Below are positions 11,937 through 54,557 of a stretch of 64,000 nucleotides of DNA, piece by piece (within the stretch, counting starts at the first letter, position 1; every line of letters starts with the position of its first letter). Made by a program: the position numbers and the translations under genes. The stretch comes from Escherichia phage dhabil: the sequence record MN850621.1, one strand, 5' to 3'. A model generated the notes under the pieces. That model had not been told where the DNA came from, did not search any database, and saw nothing but the letters and a program-made list of their open reading frames with translations.

Positions 11937-12820
<884 letters not shown>

Positions 12821-25479: not shown

Positions 25480-25506
25480 TAAAGGGCCGCAAGGCCCTTT
25501 CGGGGG

Positions 25507-25514
25507 TATAAATA
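25507..25514 (+). promoter_or_regulatory. late promoter TATAAATA for gene 9
   Basis: Exact consensus ~27 nt upstream of the gene 9 ATG, just after the gene 8 terminator-like hairpin. Confidence 0.55.
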
Positions 25515-26401: not shown

Positions 26402-28212
26402 TGAAACAAGAATTAAAAATAGGCCAGGCCGTTGATGATGGCTCCGGAGATTACCTGCGCGCAGGTGGTCTAAAAATCAATAATAACTTTAACGAGTTAT
26501 ACTATCAATTAGGTGATGGAGATAATCCTCACGCTGCTGGTGCCTGGAAACAATATTCTACTGCAGATGGTCCTTTACTTAATGCTGTTATGGGTCATAG
26601 CTATACGTTGAATACCCAGGGTGGAAGGATTAACGTTCAACTTCCTAAAGGTACCCCTTCAGAATATAACTTTGTAATTCGTTTGCGTGACGTTTATTCT
26701 TCTTGGCAAGCTAACCCTGTAACAATTATACCTGCTCCAGGTGATACGATTAAAGGCTCTGCTGTACAGGTTGAAATAGCCCGTAACTTTGCTGACCTTG
26801 AACTTGTCTATTGTGCTCCGGGTCGCTGGGAATATGTTGAGAACAAGCAAGTTAACCGTATTCCAAATAACGACCTCGCTACTGTAGCAACCAAACAGTT
26901 TATTGCTACTGAAGGCCAAACCGATTTCTTGGATATTTTCCCAGGATTAACCTATAATATTTCTAGTCTTAGCGTAATTCAACGTGGTAACACCTTGTTT
27001 TATGGTGTAGATGATATATTTGATGAAGCCACTTCAGAGTTCGGTAGCCCAGGCGCTAACCCAGGCGAATTGGTTGAATTGAACGGTAAAGATATCCGTT
27101 TGAAATATCCATGTGAAGCCGGTGATACAGTAATCATTAAATCCTATAACGATGGATTGGCCCAATGGCGTAGTTCTTATAATCGTCGTGATATTACTAT
27201 TTTAGATAAAACCCTTACCCATGAAACCACAGTTAACGGTTCTAAAGTAGTATTAGACCTTTCTACCATACAGACTATTACCGCGGTGGAATTAAATGTT
27301 TCTCCTACAAGCCCTATTAACCCTAATGCTTGCCAGGTAATGCTTAACAGTACTTTATTGCACCAAGCTGGTACTGCAGGGTTCCCTGCTTTCTATTGTG
27401 AAGGTGTTGATACTGATGATGCAGCTCTTTGTGCTGATTCGGGTGGTGTATGGACACAATCTAAATCTGATTATATTTTGAATATTGCAGATGACGATAA
27501 AATCGAATCATTCGAATTTGGACGTAAATTAGAACATGGTGATATCCTTACCGTAATTTGGTATAATAATGATATTGGTACTACCATGACTATTGATGAG
27601 ATTTTGGATACTACAAATGATATCTACATTTCTCAAGGTCCTTCGGTGTCTTTAACCGGCCAGGTTCGTATTACTGATGTGGATAATCCATTTTCTCCTA
27701 ACTTTGAACCTGTTGCAGAATCCGAAGTTTCTATTAATACGGCTGCAGTGATGTTCGATTTGTTCCATCCAATAGGGACAATTTACGAGAACACGGTGAA
27801 CCCTAATAACCCTGCAACTTATATGGGTATGGGTAGTTGGAAACGTTTATCTGATAGTTTCCTTGTAGGTTGGTCGCCGGATGCAGATTCATTGTTCAAT
27901 GCGAACAATAACGATTTGGATTCTTCTGGTATTCCTAAATCTACCGCAGGTGGAACAGGTGGTTCTCATAATATTTCGATTAAATATGAAAATGTTCCTG
28001 AACTTAATACAGATGACAAGGTATTAGTTGCTGATGATAATGGCCCTATTGTTATCGGTGGATGTTTGGTAGACCCGGATGCACAAGGTCCTGCTTATAC
28101 CAAATATCGTGAAGATAAAGCTACAATAAACAAGCAGCAATCTACAACGCCTATTCCAATTAATACATTGCCTCCATATACAACCGTTTATCGCTGGGTG
28201 AGGATTGCGTAA
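26401..28212 (+). CDS. 10: baseplate wedge protein gp10
   Basis: 603 aa; ATGA coupling to gene 9; size and order as T4 gp10. Confidence 0.85.
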   Translation: MKQELKIGQAVDDGSGDYLRAGGLKINNNFNELYYQLGDGDNPHAAGAWKQYSTADGPLLNAVMGHSYTLNTQGGRINVQLPKGTPSEYNFVIRLRDVYSSWQANPVTIIPAPGDTIKGSAVQVEIARNFADLELVYCAPGRWEYVENKQVNRIPNNDLATVATKQFIATEGQTDFLDIFPGLTYNISSLSVIQRGNTLFYGVDDIFDEATSEFGSPGANPGELVELNGKDIRLKYPCEAGDTVIIKSYNDGLAQWRSSYNRRDITILDKTLTHETTVNGSKVVLDLSTIQTITAVELNVSPTSPINPNACQVMLNSTLLHQAGTAGFPAFYCEGVDTDDAALCADSGGVWTQSKSDYILNIADDDKIESFEFGRKLEHGDILTVIWYNNDIGTTMTIDEILDTTNDIYISQGPSVSLTGQVRITDVDNPFSPNFEPVAESEVSINTAAVMFDLFHPIGTIYENTVNPNNPATYMGMGSWKRLSDSFLVGWSPDADSLFNANNNDLDSSGIPKSTAGGTGGSHNISIKYENVPELNTDDKVLVADDNGPIVIGGCLVDPDAQGPAYTKYREDKATINKQQSTTPIPINTLPPYTTVYRWVRIA

Positions 28213-49485: not shown

Positions 49486-49737
49486 TTACTTTAGACCAAA
49501 AACGCGCTTTGCGCTGACCTTTTTGTTGTTTAATCTTTTACGATACACAACTTTCTCTTTTGCTTTAAACTTGGCCTTAGCATTCTCAACTTCGGCCCAG
49601 GCTTTAGCCATATCTCTGGCAGTTCCGCCAATCTTTTTAGCAATATCAATAAAATTCATACCCGATTCATGTAAAAAATGTACTTTAATCTTATCCATAA
49701 CAGTTCTCTTGTGATTTGAACTATTCAATAGTAACAT
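49486..49737 (-). CDS. hypothetical small basic protein, possible DNA-binding (24.2/24.3 region)
   Basis: 83 aa ORF; start may instead be the internal ATG at 49698 (MDKIKVHF…). Confidence 0.4.
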   Translation of the reverse strand: MLLLNSSNHKRTVMDKIKVHFLHESGMNFIDIAKKIGGTARDMAKAWAEVENAKAKFKAKEKVVYRKRLNNKKVSAKRVFGLK

Positions 49738-49767
49738 GAGAATTTTAACTTGTAAACAGGAGATTTT

Positions 49768-51273
49768 ATGTCAGACAATCCATTATACGGGCATGATGGT
49801 AGAGGCCACTTTAGAGGCGTATCATTAGTAGAAGTTCCACAGAACAAATCATTGGAATTTGTGGACATACTCACTAGTGAAAGCACCTTAGACCCTACTA
49901 TGCTAGATTCTTCTCAAAGCTATGGACTTGAATTTATAAAACAAGCTTCTAGGGAAGGCGCGTTGGCCCATTTAGGTATAACTAATGAGATGCTAACACC
50001 TGGTACTGAAGGTCCACAAGGCCCTAAAGGAGACCCAGGGCCGCAAGGTATTCAAGGTAACCCCGGTCCTAAAGGAGAAAAGGGCGAACCAGGACCAGTA
50101 GGTCCAGAAGGTCCTAAAGGAGACCCGGGTTCACCAGGAAAAGAAGGCCCTCAGGGTTTACAAGGGGCCCAAGGAGAAGTAGGACCGCAAGGACCACAAG
50201 GTCCTATAGGCCCGGCAGGTTTGGTGTGGAAGGGAGCCTGGGATGAATCTACCCAATACTCTAAAGACGATGCAGTTGGATACCAGGGAGCTTCTTATTT
50301 TTGCATCAGTTCTAATACAGGAACAATACCTCCTAGCGAAGGAGTTTGGGCACTATTGGCTAATATCGGTGCACCAGGTCCTCAAGGACCAACAGGCCCA
50401 ACCGGCCCTCAAGGTCCACAAGGCGCGCCAGGCCAAGATGGTAATGGGTTTATCTGGGCCGGAAACTGGGCCCTTGGTTCGTCTTATTATATAAACGATT
50501 TGGTCCAGTGCGAAGGGTCTTCTTGGATTTGTATCCAGGATAATATAGCAAATAATGATAGTTATCCTGGGAGTGGAGACCTGTGGGCCGATTATTGGAA
50601 TTTATTTGTAAAAGAAGGGCGTCCAGGAAATCCCGGAGAAGATGGTGCACCTGGAGAGCAAGGTGCCCAAGGACCGCAAGGCGACCCAGGTCCTAAAGGT
50701 GAAAAGGGTGAACCCGGGCCACAAGGTATTCAAGGTCCTATAGGTCCTGCAGGTGCGCCAGGCAAAGATGCAGTATTTGATGTCGATTCTTTAACCCAGT
50801 CTCAATTAAAATCTTTATATGATAAACTTTTCCCATTCTATCCACCTAGATATTGGAAAGGCTCTTTAAGATTTGATAAGCCTCTGAACACTTCAGAGTG
50901 GAAGGAAATACGTTTGTGGGACCTTAATATGGTTCTTCATGTTCGCATGTACTCATCTGTAGGCATCCATATAAGGGCTACTAATGCAGGTCTTACTAAT
51001 AGGCTTGATATTAAAAGATTTACCAACTATGAAAACGGAATAGAATGTGCCAACTGGAGTAATGTGTTGTGGTCATCATCTCCTGAATTATTCGACGATT
51101 TGGCTTATTCTAGTGCAAGACAATTTAACCGTTACGAAATATTTGACCGTGATACTAGAAAATACTACACTGTATCTGTGTTTATTGTAGGCGGCCCTCT
51201 TAATACGACTACAGATATCCCTGTTGAAGTTTTATTTTCTGTCGAAGACCATACCAATATGAGCACGTTTTAA
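49768..51273 (+). CDS. collagen-like protein with two chitin-binding-type (CBM5/12-like) modules and a C-terminal globular domain
   Basis: 501 aa; three Gly-X-Y blocks (about nt 50002-50194, 50347-50424, 50623-50769) separated by W…Y…D.V.Y.G..Y.C modules; SD AGGAG. Confidence 0.8.
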
Positions 51274-51282
51274 GGAGGTTAA

Positions 51283-52149
51283 ATGATTGTACTTAAAATA
51301 AATGGTCCTAGATATGAATTGGTTGGCAGGACAGTAACCTTTTATACCGGGTTTGTATTACCACCCGGTTCTACTCTAGATGACGTAGAAATTAATTGGT
51401 ATAAAAACGATGTCCATATTCCACAACTTCCTACCGAAGACCCTTTTGAATTAAATTTATGGGAAGTAGGATTCCCGGCGGCAGGAACATTTTATGCGAC
51501 CATAACAAATAAGAAAAGTGGTGAAATAACAAAGAGTAACGAAATAGAACTTGAAATAGGTACCCTTCCAAGAAGAATAGTCCTAGATATAAACTCTAGG
51601 GAATTAATATATGCCAATATAGGAGAAACAGTTTCACTTCGCCCGTCGTGTAGAGTGGAACCCACTTATGCCGAAAGAATTTGTAGATGGTATAGAGATG
51701 GAGTAGAATTATCTAAAGACGAAGATATTGATATATTAATAGACGACCCTGATAAATTTGGAGATTATACATTAAAATCTATAGCGACCTGCGAAGGAGC
51801 ATATATCCCTGCTTCTGAAGAACTTTTAGTTGAAATAAAACCTAGGGATGATGTATTGCAGTGCCCTTTCATATATGATAACGACCTTAATGCTTATTTA
51901 CCATATGGCGGTGGAAGAAATGAATCGTATATGTGGATAGGTTGGTGGGTATGGGACGAAATAAGAGAAGCCGTTAGATTGGGAGAAGATTGGACTTTGG
52001 ATATAAACAACAGCCCATACAAGTATAAATGTGAGTTACAAAAAGTAGCCGACCTTTTGTCTAAGTATCCTGAAGTAGAGATACAAGAGTCGAGAAATGG
52101 CTACATCTTAGAAAGGAAAGACTTAGTTTACGTCCCTCCTGAAAAATAA
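51283..52149 (+). CDS. Hoc-like capsid decoration protein paralog (novel N-terminal domains + Hoc capsid-binding C-terminus)
   Basis: 288 aa; C-terminal ~75 aa (YMWIGWWVWDEI…YPEVEIQESRNGYILER) matches the C-terminus of the Hoc protein on the opposite strand; coupled to the collagen gene (TAAGGAGGTTAAATG). Confidence 0.7.
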   Translation: MIVLKINGPRYELVGRTVTFYTGFVLPPGSTLDDVEINWYKNDVHIPQLPTEDPFELNLWEVGFPAAGTFYATITNKKSGEITKSNEIELEIGTLPRRIVLDINSRELIYANIGETVSLRPSCRVEPTYAERICRWYRDGVELSKDEDIDILIDDPDKFGDYTLKSIATCEGAYIPASEELLVEIKPRDDVLQCPFIYDNDLNAYLPYGGGRNESYMWIGWWVWDEIREAVRLGEDWTLDINNSPYKYKCELQKVADLLSKYPEVEIQESRNGYILERKDLVYVPPEK

Positions 52150-52153
52150 TAAA

Positions 52154-52172
52154 GGGCCTACGGGCCCTTTTT
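52154..52172 (+). terminator. rho-independent terminator after the Hoc-like paralog
   Basis: Hairpin gggcc-UACG-ggccc followed by ttttt. Confidence 0.6.
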
Positions 52173-52337
52173 GGTATGTAAAATTTTATCTATAGTAGCT
52201 ATTATCCCAAAAAAGGAACTAATGCATGTGAAAAGAGCCAATATAGAAGCAAACAACCCACTAGTTAATGAAATTAACGAAAACAAAAACAGCACTATAA
52301 AGAAAACCAACAACCCTATATCTTTGTTAAATTTCAT
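52158..52337 (-). CDS. small hydrophobic membrane protein (59 aa)
   Basis: Below the track cutoff; manual translation MKFNKDIGLLVFFIVLFLFSLISLTSGLFASILALFTCISSFFGIIATIDKILHTKKGP; SD AGGTGG 4 nt upstream of ATG. Confidence 0.4.
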   Translation of the reverse strand: MKFNKDIGLLVFFIVLFLFSLISLTSGLFASILALFTCISSFFGIIATIDKILHTKKGP

Positions 52338-52404
52338 ATATCCACCTATTAAAAATTATTCGTCAATAACTTAATCTCCCGAAACATTATCATAAACTAA
52401 ATAA

Positions 52405-52418
52405 GGGCCTTGCGGCCC
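52405..52418 (-). terminator. hairpin terminator downstream of hoc
   Basis: gggcc-GCAA-ggccc followed on minus strand by ttattt. Confidence 0.45.
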
Positions 52419-52422
52419 TTTA

Positions 52423-53835
52423 TTAATAAACGTAATCGTAAATAATTCCAGCATCCAAAGCGGTTCTGTGAATAATTCTACCATTACGAGATTCCTGTAC
52501 ATCAACCTCAGGATAATCGGCTACCATTTTTTGAAGGGTATAACGATGGAGATAATATTCACTATCAGGTTCGTCAGTTTTCCAGTCTTTGCCTTCAAGG
52601 GTCATTTTCTGAATTTCGTCCATAACCCACCAACCACACCAAATATAAGCTGAATTACGAACTGGTAGCGGATGAACGTAAGGTAGTTCGCCCTCTGGTT
52701 CAGGAGCGACTTTAGCCGTAATTGTTACATTACCGGATTTTGTGACGGTCACAGAATTATAGTCGGTAGCCGAAACCACAACAGAAACTTCAATAACCTG
52801 TGAACCTTCAGCGCTTGTGTCAATTACTAATGTATCCGTAGCACCCACAACAGGTGAACCATCTTTCTTCCAAGAATAAGCAAAAGTAGCACCACTAGGC
52901 GCACCGACTACCGTGGCTTTAAAAGAAGCCGGGATTCCTTCAGAGACAGTAATAGAAGCAGGCGTTAAATTAACAGAAACACCTGCCATAGTCTTTTTAG
53001 TAATTGTTACACTTCCTGTTTTGGTAACGGTTAAATCATTATAATCCGTACCTTTTAGGAGTACCGAAACTTCAATAGAGTAAGAACCTATTGTAGACGT
53101 ATCAACAGCAAGAGTATTACTGCTTTCGCCCGGAATAATAGAACCGTTTTTCTTCCAAGAATAAGTTGCATTTACGCCGGAAGGAGCGCCGACTACATCC
53201 GCTTTAAACTGTGCAGATGAGTCTTTCTCTGTACTAATTGAGGCCGGTGTTAAAGTAACAGAAACACCTGATATAGTTTTCTTAACAAAAGTTACCGCAG
53301 CACCTTTAGTAGCGGTACCCGGGTTATATTCAGGGGCGGTAACAGTAACTTCACAGTTCAACGTGTAATTTGCTTCCGCGGCTTCGGTTACAGTAATAGT
53401 TTTACCAGTTTGGCCAGAGATTACGCTGGTGTTACGTTTCCAAACATAAGCAATTGTTGCACCTGCAGGTGCACCCGTCACGTTAGCAGTAACAACTTGA
53501 GATTGGCCAACTTCTTTAGAAACAGAAATAGGGTCCAAAGCCAAAGAAATAGACATGGTCTTATTAGCTACGGTAACTTCAAAAGTATCTTCAGCTACCT
53601 CAGGTTCGCCTTCAGCCGGAGTAGAAGTTGCTACTACTTTTAAAACTTTCTTACCTACAGGTGCAGCACCTGTATATTTCAAAACATTGGTTGCTTCTGG
53701 ATTAGAAGCACCATCAATAGACCATACATATGTAATGGTTCCTTCTACAGCTGCACCTGTTGCGGTAGCAGTGTAGTTAGCACTTTCGCCTATTTTAATA
53801 GACGCTGTGCCGGCTATACTTACAGTAAAAGCCAT
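52423..53835 (-). CDS. hoc: highly immunogenic outer capsid protein Hoc (four Ig-like domains + capsid-binding domain)
   Basis: 470 aa; C-terminus …PEPEGELPYVHPLPVRNSAYIWCGWWVMDEIQKMT.EGKDWKTD… closely matches T4 Hoc; four internal Ig-like repeats versus three in T4. Confidence 0.9.
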   Translation of the reverse strand: MAFTVSIAGTASIKIGESANYTATATGAAVEGTITYVWSIDGASNPEATNVLKYTGAAPVGKKVLKVVATSTPAEGEPEVAEDTFEVTVANKTMSISLALDPISVSKEVGQSQVVTANVTGAPAGATIAYVWKRNTSVISGQTGKTITVTEAAEANYTLNCEVTVTAPEYNPGTATKGAAVTFVKKTISGVSVTLTPASISTEKDSSAQFKADVVGAPSGVNATYSWKKNGSIIPGESSNTLAVDTSTIGSYSIEVSVLLKGTDYNDLTVTKTGSVTITKKTMAGVSVNLTPASITVSEGIPASFKATVVGAPSGATFAYSWKKDGSPVVGATDTLVIDTSAEGSQVIEVSVVVSATDYNSVTVTKSGNVTITAKVAPEPEGELPYVHPLPVRNSAYIWCGWWVMDEIQKMTLEGKDWKTDEPDSEYYLHRYTLQKMVADYPEVDVQESRNGRIIHRTALDAGIIYDYVY

Positions 53836-53844
53836 ATTTTACCC

Positions 53845-54516
53845 TTATTTTAAAGTTACGAAAGATGAATTACGCGTTTCACGTACTAATACTGAACCAT
53901 TACGATTGATGTAATAAATCAGACTGAATAGTGTTTGGTGGGCAGATGGGTGTTGGAAATCTTTAGGGCGTTCTTTCCAATCAGGGGTTTCGGTAATCCA
54001 TTGATAAATCCACCAAGGCACAGTACAATACCCTGGGTTTTTACCAATGAGTAAAAGATTAGGGCTAAAGTTTTCAGGTAAAGAGAATACAGGTTTTTCA
54101 GATTCAATAACCTCGGCCACAGCCTCTTTGAATTTCTCTTCGACAAACGGGACGTCTTCTTCAATAATCTCTACCTTAGGAAGTTCGGCTACCTCAATAA
54201 CTTCAACTACCGCTTCAGGGGCATCAAATAATAGGGTAGCCTCTTCTTTGGCGGGTTCGGCACCATCAACAAATTCGTTAGCGCCTGTGAGTTCGTCGGC
54301 GGCATCAATCAAATCAGAAATAGACAAACCTTCGGTTTCTGGAAGTGGTTCATCAGCCAGGGCTTTAAGGCCTTCAGAGATATCGATAATCAAATTATCA
54401 AACGAACGGGTTTTCTTAAGTTTCAAACCGAATTGTTCGCCGTATTCGATTAACTTAGCTTTAGCTTCTTTTTTATCTTCGAGTGCACGAAGCTCTTCAA
54501 TATATTGAGTATCCAT
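53845..54516 (-). CDS. inh: Inh-like protein (inhibitor of prohead protease), acidic
   Basis: 223 aa acidic protein in the T4 inh position between hoc and uvsW. Confidence 0.6.
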   Translation of the reverse strand: MDTQYIEELRALEDKKEAKAKLIEYGEQFGLKLKKTRSFDNLIIDISEGLKALADEPLPETEGLSISDLIDAADELTGANEFVDGAEPAKEEATLLFDAPEAVVEVIEVAELPKVEIIEEDVPFVEEKFKEAVAEVIESEKPVFSLPENFSPNLLLIGKNPGYCTVPWWIYQWITETPDWKERPKDFQHPSAHQTLFSLIYYINRNGSVLVRETRNSSFVTLK

Positions 54517-54535: not shown

Positions 54536-54557
54536 TATAAATATAATTATATTTATA
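54536..54557. promoter_or_regulatory. divergent late promoters: TATAAATA (+, 54536-54543) for uvsW and TATAAATA (-, 54550-54557) for inh
   Basis: Exact late consensus on both strands in the 55-nt intergenic region. Confidence 0.5.

Follow-up and report, generated by a model that had tools for sequence, protein, structure and literature searches.

A candidate small membrane-protein ORF in a hairpin-bounded cassette beside hoc in Dhakavirus coliphages

The question raised by this locus is whether the DNA between hoc and a convergent hoc-like gene of 288 aa encodes a small membrane protein or is a spacer in which open frames arise by chance. The window analyzed here is a stretch of 64,000 nt from Escherichia phage dhabil (MN850621.1), a T4-like coliphage of the genus Dhakavirus. 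Over positions 51200-53900 its sequence matches phage dhaeg (MN850609.1) at 100% identity and CLB_P2 at 97.9%. The stretch and dhaeg are colinear and identical over about 34-58 kb; elsewhere indels offset the coordinates by 93, 743, 396 and 1 nt, with 98.8% identity in the 4-16.5 kb part. Gap and coding statistics were computed on the dhaeg record. The gap of interest measures 273 nt, from the hoc stop at 52423 on the minus strand to the stop of the hoc-like gene at 52149 on the plus strand, and ranks third by size among 79 intergenic gaps, the median of which is 9 nt and the largest of which holds tRNAs.

A sequence-only reading of the window had drawn attention to an unannotated, strongly hydrophobic ORF of 59 aa on the minus strand of this gap. 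We reproduced its translation exactly (MKFNKDIGLLVFFIVLFLFSLISLTSGLFASILALFTCISSFFGIIATIDKILHTKKGP; an ATG start, 59 codons and a TAG stop), and dhaeg indeed carries no annotation for it. The strong Shine-Dalgarno (SD) sequence ascribed to it was borne out as well, as AGGTGG lies 4 nt before the ATG and its 5-mer AGGTG pairs with the 16S 3' end with a duplex dG of -7.1 kcal/mol, a strength that exceeds 65% of the SDs from 80 annotated genes and is attained by only 5.6% of 54 spurious ATG ORFs. In phage IME341 the SD reads AGGTGA, a single substitution that raises its complementarity to the 16S 3' end. The product is as hydrophobic as claimed, with a GRAVY of 1.32, 19-residue Kyte-Doolittle windows reaching 2.8, and an uninterrupted hydrophobic stretch of 43 residues (residues 7-49) with TSG in its center. 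This core is framed by a Lys-rich N-terminus (MKFNKD) and a basic, Lys-rich C-terminus (DKILHTKKGP), and no lipobox, signal-peptidase site or dual-start motif was seen by eye in the product, which contains a single Met. The coordinates of the ORF and of the features surrounding it are collected in Table 1.

Table 1. Features of the hoc-side gap and its surroundings (positions in the window)
Feature	Position	Strand	Evidence
Candidate small membrane protein gene	52158..52337	-	ORF, SD, hydropathy, shuffles, substitutions
Shine-Dalgarno AGGTGG	52342..52347	-	sequence and 16S complementarity
Predicted TM1, residues 7-24, IGLLVFFIVLFLFSLISL	52266..52319	-	hydropathy
Predicted TM2, residues 28-49, LFASILALFTCISSFFGIIATI	52191..52256	-	hydropathy
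AT-rich ORF leader, 65 nt	52338..52402	-	promoter scan and sequence reading
Hairpin 1, AAGGGCC-GCAA-GGCCCTT, hoc terminator, cassette left boundary	52403..52420	-	dG -13.5 kcal/mol
Hairpin 2, AAAGGGCC-CGTA-GGCCCTTT, bidirectional terminator, cassette right boundary	52151..52170	both	dG about -13 kcal/mol
Late promoter TATAAATA upstream of inh, nearest on the minus strand to the ORF	54550..54557	-	motif search
Opposite-strand 67-aa TTG ORF, hypothetical protein in CLB_P2, judged not the gene	52171..52374	+	no SD; pN/pS

By hydropathy and the positive-inside rule, the product would form a 59-aa helical hairpin in the inner membrane, with TM1 at about residues 7-24, a turn at TSG and TM2 at about residues 28-49. 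The Lys-rich character of both termini fits such a hairpin with the N- and C-terminus in the cytoplasm (N-in/C-in). The small residues of TM2 cluster on one helical face (permutation p=0.0035), but the DNA itself has a periodicity of about 10.5 nt (p of about 0.03), which confounds this signal. A single-sequence AF2 model instead presents one continuous helix spanning residues 2-56 (pLDDT 91) with no hairpin, and does not settle the topology.

Two families of small phage membrane proteins offer a comparison. The superinfection immunity protein Imm of T4 is an inner-membrane protein of 83 aa with two predicted TM helices, and class II holins or pinholins such as S21 of phage 21 are about 70 aa long, with two TMDs, an N-in/C-in topology and a helix face of small residues. 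Like Imm, the ORF product would be a small phage membrane protein with two helices, predicted here from hydropathy; unlike Imm, which is the product of an early gene, it is encoded at a different genomic position without an early promoter, and neither sequence similarity nor a Pfam or PHROG hit connects it with Imm families. The resemblance to class II holins extends to size, two hydrophobic helices, a basic cytoplasmic C-terminus and the small-residue face of TM2, all as predicted here, and the two hydrophobic segments and charged C-terminus fit the class II layout by hydropathy and charge, the AF2 single-sequence model being one helix. In contrast to those holins, the product matches no holin profile in Pfam, PHROGs or NCBIfam and has no dual-start motif, and its neighbors are hoc and the hoc-like gene, with no endolysin or spanin adjacent. 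The T4-type holin of the phage (dhaeg_8), rIII and the spanin Rz1 are encoded elsewhere in the genome. Thus the likeness to Imm and to class II holins is limited to size and hydropathy, and fails in sequence and in context. The holin/antiholin or superinfection-exclusion role that the earlier reading had suggested for such proteins finds no significant database match, with a T-type holin already encoded elsewhere.

The ORF fits exactly between two near-identical GC hairpin terminators. Hairpin 1 begins 2 nt past the hoc stop and has an interrupted U-tract (AUUUAGUUUAU); its sequence is also present in VR25, JS98 and Bp7, as the sole hairpin at the site. Hairpin 2, whose loop contains the TAG stop of the ORF, runs into UUUAUUAUUUUU when read on the minus strand. 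On the plus strand UUUUU comes after it, and there it terminates the 288-aa hoc-like gene; these U-runs on both strands mark it as a bidirectional terminator. The shared motif, AAGGGCC-N4-GGCCCTT, occurs three times in the 64 kb (25482-25499, 52152-52169 and 52403-52420) against an expectation of 0.01. The copy at 25482 is directly followed by a late promoter, TATAAATA, at 25507.

No such promoter, nor one of sigma-70 or MotA type, was found in the leader of the ORF (52338-52402 on the minus strand) by promoter scan and motif search. The leader does contain a -35-like TTGACG (52361..52366 on the minus strand), with no usable -10; the best candidate by eye, TTGACG-N17-GGATAT, matches the -10 at 2 of 6 positions and ends at the ATG, and transcription from it would start inside the ORF. 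Farther along the minus strand, an early-type promoter (TTTACA-N17-TACTAT, 49719-49747) fits the T4/PST consensus for promoter-early stem-loops, TTTACW-N17-TAYWAT. It lies upstream of the DUF2774 (24.3-like) gene and inside the 5' end of the collagen-like gene on the opposite strand, and this position suggests that the true start of the DUF2774 gene is the annotated second ATG at 49698 rather than the start of the 83-aa ORF at 49737.

A tblastn search of 50,697 phage records found the ORF in just four Dhakavirus phages: dhaeg, CLB_P2, Ec2-ASingh and IME341. The product is the same in dhaeg and CLB_P2, and differs by 2 aa in Ec2-ASingh and by 7 aa in IME341. Leader, ORF and terminator together span about 250 nt, and sequence homology among phages breaks at the hairpins. 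This segment is missing from JS98, Bp7, 04086, JS10, IME08 and VR25, each of which has a single hairpin at the site. In JS98, Bp7 and 04086 the single hoc hairpin directly precedes the early promoter of 24.3, and in JS10, IME08 and VR25 the convergent hoc genes are only 30-45 nt apart with one hairpin between them. The pattern of presence and absence, together with the breakpoints at the hairpins, identifies the ORF as part of a self-contained indel cassette, about 250 nt long and flanked by copies of the repeated hairpin. A lack of conservation in relatives, which the sequence-only reading had named as grounds for doubting the gene, is thus found in part: most relatives do not have the cassette, but it is intact wherever it is present.

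IME341 has no inverted module of collagen-like and hoc-like genes, yet it retains hairpin 1, leader, ORF and hairpin 2, and there the ORF points the same way as hoc, the 24.3-like gene and rnlB; the ORF therefore travels with the 3' end of hoc as a unit of its own. Its leader carries a 3-nt deletion and three substitutions, and the loop of its hairpin 1 is inverted, from GCAA to TTGC, a flip that fits a crossover inside the palindrome.

More broadly, the place where hoc meets the 24.3-like gene (49486-52422) is a hot spot at which gene content changes from phage to phage in Dhakavirus and Gaprivervirus. No additional sequence lies there in JS98 and Bp7; IME341 has the small-ORF cassette and about 85 nt; in dhaeg and CLB_P2 the cassette is joined by the inverted module, comprising the 288-aa hoc-like gene and a collagen-like gene whose 501-aa product contains CBM_5_12 and collagen repeats; JS10, IME08 and VR25 have the inverted module and no cassette; and MN01 carries a gene for over 900 aa.

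Such an organization recalls the PeSL (promoter-early stem-loop) cassettes of T4-type phages, in which ORFans are shuffled by stem-loops (Arbiol et al. 2010, PMC2839356; Comeau et al. 2014, PMC4122927) and among which the phi1-specific ORFan168.1 is located near hoc (PMC2839356). As in those cassettes, a single ORFan lies between near-identical stem-loop terminators while close relatives have one stem-loop and no ORFan, the ORFan is present or absent among relatives with breakpoints at the repeated motif, and the motif recurs in the genome. The cassette also adjoins hoc, a known variable spot, and the loop flip in IME341 is compatible with stem-loop crossover. Unlike PeSLs, the present locus has no sigma-70-like early promoter at the stem-loop upstream of the ORF, and it lies in the late structural region rather than in the hyperplastic early region. 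As judged from its sequence, the locus spreads like a PeSL-type ORFan cassette, but without the early-promoter half.

Is the ORF within this cassette translated? When the 273-nt gap is shuffled with its dinucleotides preserved, 1.2% of the shuffles contain an ATG ORF that reaches 59 aa or more, and the joint chance of such an ORF together with such an SD (about 6%) in one specific gap is approximately 1e-3. This counts against the principal alternative, in which the segment is non-coding: a T- and AT-rich recombination scar between copies of a terminator hairpin, possibly with a structural or DNA-curvature role, whose ORFs are by-products of composition and whose AGGTG is fortuitous. That alternative would also have about 230 nt of functionless DNA persist in genomes with a median spacer of 9 nt. 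Once the small number of large gaps inspected is taken into account, the start signal and context together favor a gene with a likelihood ratio of the order of 100.

The composition of the ORF speaks in the opposite direction. Under a 3-periodic Markov model for which 145 dhaeg genes served as the training set, the ORF scores -0.19 to -0.25 bits per codon, lower than 47 of the 48 annotated genes shorter than 100 aa (median +0.26) and inside the range of spurious overlapping ORFs (-0.33 +/- 0.15). Its CAI of 0.60 and synonymous-usage log-odds of -0.003, against 0.70 +/- 0.04 and 0.24 +/- 0.08 for small genes, place it about 3 SD under those genes but no more than 1 SD away from spurious ORFs, with ATA used for six of nine Ile codons and GGG for three of four Gly codons. 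Matching for hydrophobicity leaves it in the non-coding range: the TM windows of the ORF score -0.20 to -0.43 and non-coding hydrophobic windows -0.34 +/- 0.23, compared with -0.25 to +0.22 for real TM-coding windows, five of six of which reach at least -0.01 and one of which is as low as those of the ORF. The sole annotated small gene to score as low, at -0.23, is dhaeg_36, a 35-aa hypothetical protein (27577-27684 of the dhaeg record), the annotation of which may itself be spurious.

Further properties of the segment also suit a non-coding spacer. A GC content of 28% makes the ORF a local minimum that resembles intergenic DNA, no promoter precedes it, and T accounts for 77 of the 180 nt of its coding strand (43%). 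Both strands are open, as this composition predicts, and the periodicity of about 10.5 nt noted above lies in the DNA itself. Hydrophobic stop-free windows of 20 codons are frequent, with 63 others in non-coding frames of the 64 kb, so hydrophobicity alone is not evidence of a gene. A period-3 signal in the ORF, marginal at p=0.05, points the other way, toward a gene. Overall, composition counts roughly 10-fold against a gene, and in this respect the sequence-only reading of the ORF as a gene is weakened, its nucleotide statistics looking like those of non-coding frames.

Between these opposing lines of evidence, the substitutions that separate the variants are near neutral overall with a hint of constraint on TM2. 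The frame is open and free of indels in all three sequence variants, and the leader has a 3-nt indel; this difference and the retention or improvement of the SD both argue against a mere spacer. In the ORF frame, pN/pS (Nei-Gojobori) is 0.64 against IME341 (seven non-synonymous and three synonymous changes) and 0.27 against Ec2 (two of each). Across the ORF as a whole there are nine non-synonymous and five synonymous changes, giving a pN/pS of about 0.5 that is not significantly below 1 (P=0.18), and the ORF diverges at the same rate as its own leader, both as a spacer would; its pN of 0.05 is above that of hoc, inh and the 24.3-like gene. The changes are unevenly placed, with seven non-synonymous and one synonymous in the fast-changing TM1 half (codons 1-28) and none and three, respectively, in the TM2 portion (codons 29-53). 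That all three substitutions in the latter are synonymous is not expected of a spacer (P=0.011 under neutrality; Fisher p=0.027 against the rest of the ORF), with the qualification that the region was chosen post hoc.

Taking these lines together, we see about an even chance that the ORF is a translated accessory membrane-protein gene, either foreign or very young. The spacer interpretation we regard as well possible, without favoring it.

The substitutions also bear on a second alternative, namely that the true coding sequence is the overlapping plus-strand ORF of 67 aa, of which the minus-strand ORF would be the antisense shadow. The sequence-only reading had noted this ORF as lacking a ribosome-binding site, and it does exist with a TTG start and no SD; the start abuts the hairpin, and the best SD match is a 3-mer inside the stem. 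The plus-strand ORF scores somewhat better in composition (Markov about 0 against -0.2, CAI 0.67 against 0.60), it was the choice of the RAST pipeline in CLB_P2, and it too fits between the two hairpins and is open in IME341. Its frame, on the other hand, has accumulated nine non-synonymous changes and one synonymous change against IME341, for a pN/pS of 2.4 (Nei-Gojobori), and it has no homolog beyond the CLB_P2 entry itself. In IME341 it would stand alone as an antisense gene, lacking any plus-strand gene or promoter upstream, and in dhaeg it would lie downstream of a strong plus-strand terminator. We consider this alternative highly improbable. The earlier preference for the minus-strand ORF stands in this comparison, given its ATG and SD, its lower pN/pS, its co-directional placement in IME341 and the terminator at its stop.

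A third alternative, that the cassette is a small structured or regulatory RNA, such as a terminator-bounded sRNA or an element for processing of the hoc transcript, derives from the folding of the 281-nt region, which is better than that of shuffles (z=-3.25), and from the two stable hairpins that flank it. The z-score, however, is produced by the two GC palindromes; in the MFE structure these also base-pair with one another, and the centroid shows weak pairing in the interior. An Rfam scan returned no match other than a sub-threshold hit to a eukaryotic lncRNA, no promoter is present, and the variants are too few for covariation. An RNA element is accordingly very unlikely.

For the favored interpretation, an accessory membrane-protein gene, we searched widely for relatives of the product. 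A word-indexed search of 5.8 billion proteins gave no homolog, and no gene caller had ever called the frame in that collection, as would also be the case for a spacer. No homolog was found by phmmer among 1.84 billion representatives, the sole match (P0002) being rejected as a translated tandem repeat. Comparison with Pfam, PHROGs, NCBIfam, PADLOC and PDB sequences gave no significant match, the best profiles being DUF4386 (E=0.005, below the cut-off) and PHROGs of unknown function (E of at least 0.1). IMG/VR returned IME341 alone, and JGI metagenome contigs and GTDB genome contigs yielded no homolog of the ORF; the metagenome scan used the degenerate invariant peptide FFIVLFLF as its query, with which near relatives would have been caught. 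Plasmids (tblastn) and E. coli genomes (blastn) likewise contained no homolog of the ORF, and blastn in distant mode against phages and E. coli genomes detected no partial homolog of the cassette segment. Within the phage itself, a likeness to the 61-aa putative membrane protein dhaeg_118, which has a 'DKI..KG' tail, was rejected (BLASTP E=2.3). The ORF is best classed with the small hydrophobic ORFans of variable spots in T4-like phages, itself being an orphan.

An orphan of this composition could have arisen in place. In yeast, membrane proto-genes have been described as emerging de novo from thymine-rich non-genic sequence (Vakirlis et al. 2020, PMC7005711), and the ORF shares with them a T-rich strand, a predicted TM product, restriction to one lineage, codon usage like that of non-coding DNA and a lack of homologs. 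In the corresponding scenario, a T-rich spacer caught between duplicated terminator hairpins downstream of hoc, a late gene with high expression, would have gained an SD and an ATG. Read-through transcripts would now supply its translation into a membrane peptide of two helices, with TM2 already under purifying selection. In contrast to the yeast case, no homologous non-genic precursor was found here, and we rate de novo birth as unlikely for this reason. Since the relatives without the ORF lack the entire DNA segment, a de novo origin is inseparable from import out of an unsampled source.

If the ORF is indeed an accessory gene, the following sequence of events would account for the observations. 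The cassette of about 250 nt would have been inserted at the hoc terminator, or be excisable from it, through recombination between the near-identical GC hairpins. With no promoter of its own, the ORF would be expressed late in infection; we infer that inh-hoc late transcripts, initiated at the late promoter upstream of inh, would read through hairpin 1, which its weak U-tract may render leaky. Translation would then initiate at the strong SD of the ORF itself. In dhaeg these transcripts would end at hairpin 2, and in IME341, where hairpin 2 has no U-tract, they would run on into 24.3. The N-in/C-in membrane hairpin outlined above would follow as the product, and its conserved TM2, with the face of small residues, would be the likely interaction surface, either for self-packing or for a host or phage membrane protein partner. 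The outcome could be modulation of the envelope or membrane, for example superinfection exclusion or a tuning of lysis timing, for which the sequence offers no support.

Translation of the ORF would add a membrane-active peptide, absent from current annotation, to four coliphages of therapeutic or model use, and might provide a test case for the origin of orphan membrane peptides in phages. Among the four, CLB_P2 has been used in gut-colonization studies, and its record probably annotates the wrong strand at the cassette. Were the ORF untranslated, it would amount to an annotation footnote only, and in either case long-standing open questions are untouched. The locus in itself illustrates cleanly, on a small scale, how ORFans bounded by stem-loops are shuffled beside hoc.

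A second gap in the window also contains an ORF. On the minus strand at 11937..12146, in a gap of 284 nt that is unannotated in dhaeg, an ORF of 69 aa with a GTG start (58 aa from an internal ATG) lies between a 57B-like gene and an internal-head-protein gene. Its start overlaps the upstream stop in the style of translational coupling, its Markov score of about 0 is above that of the hoc-side ORF, and it is probably a missed gene.
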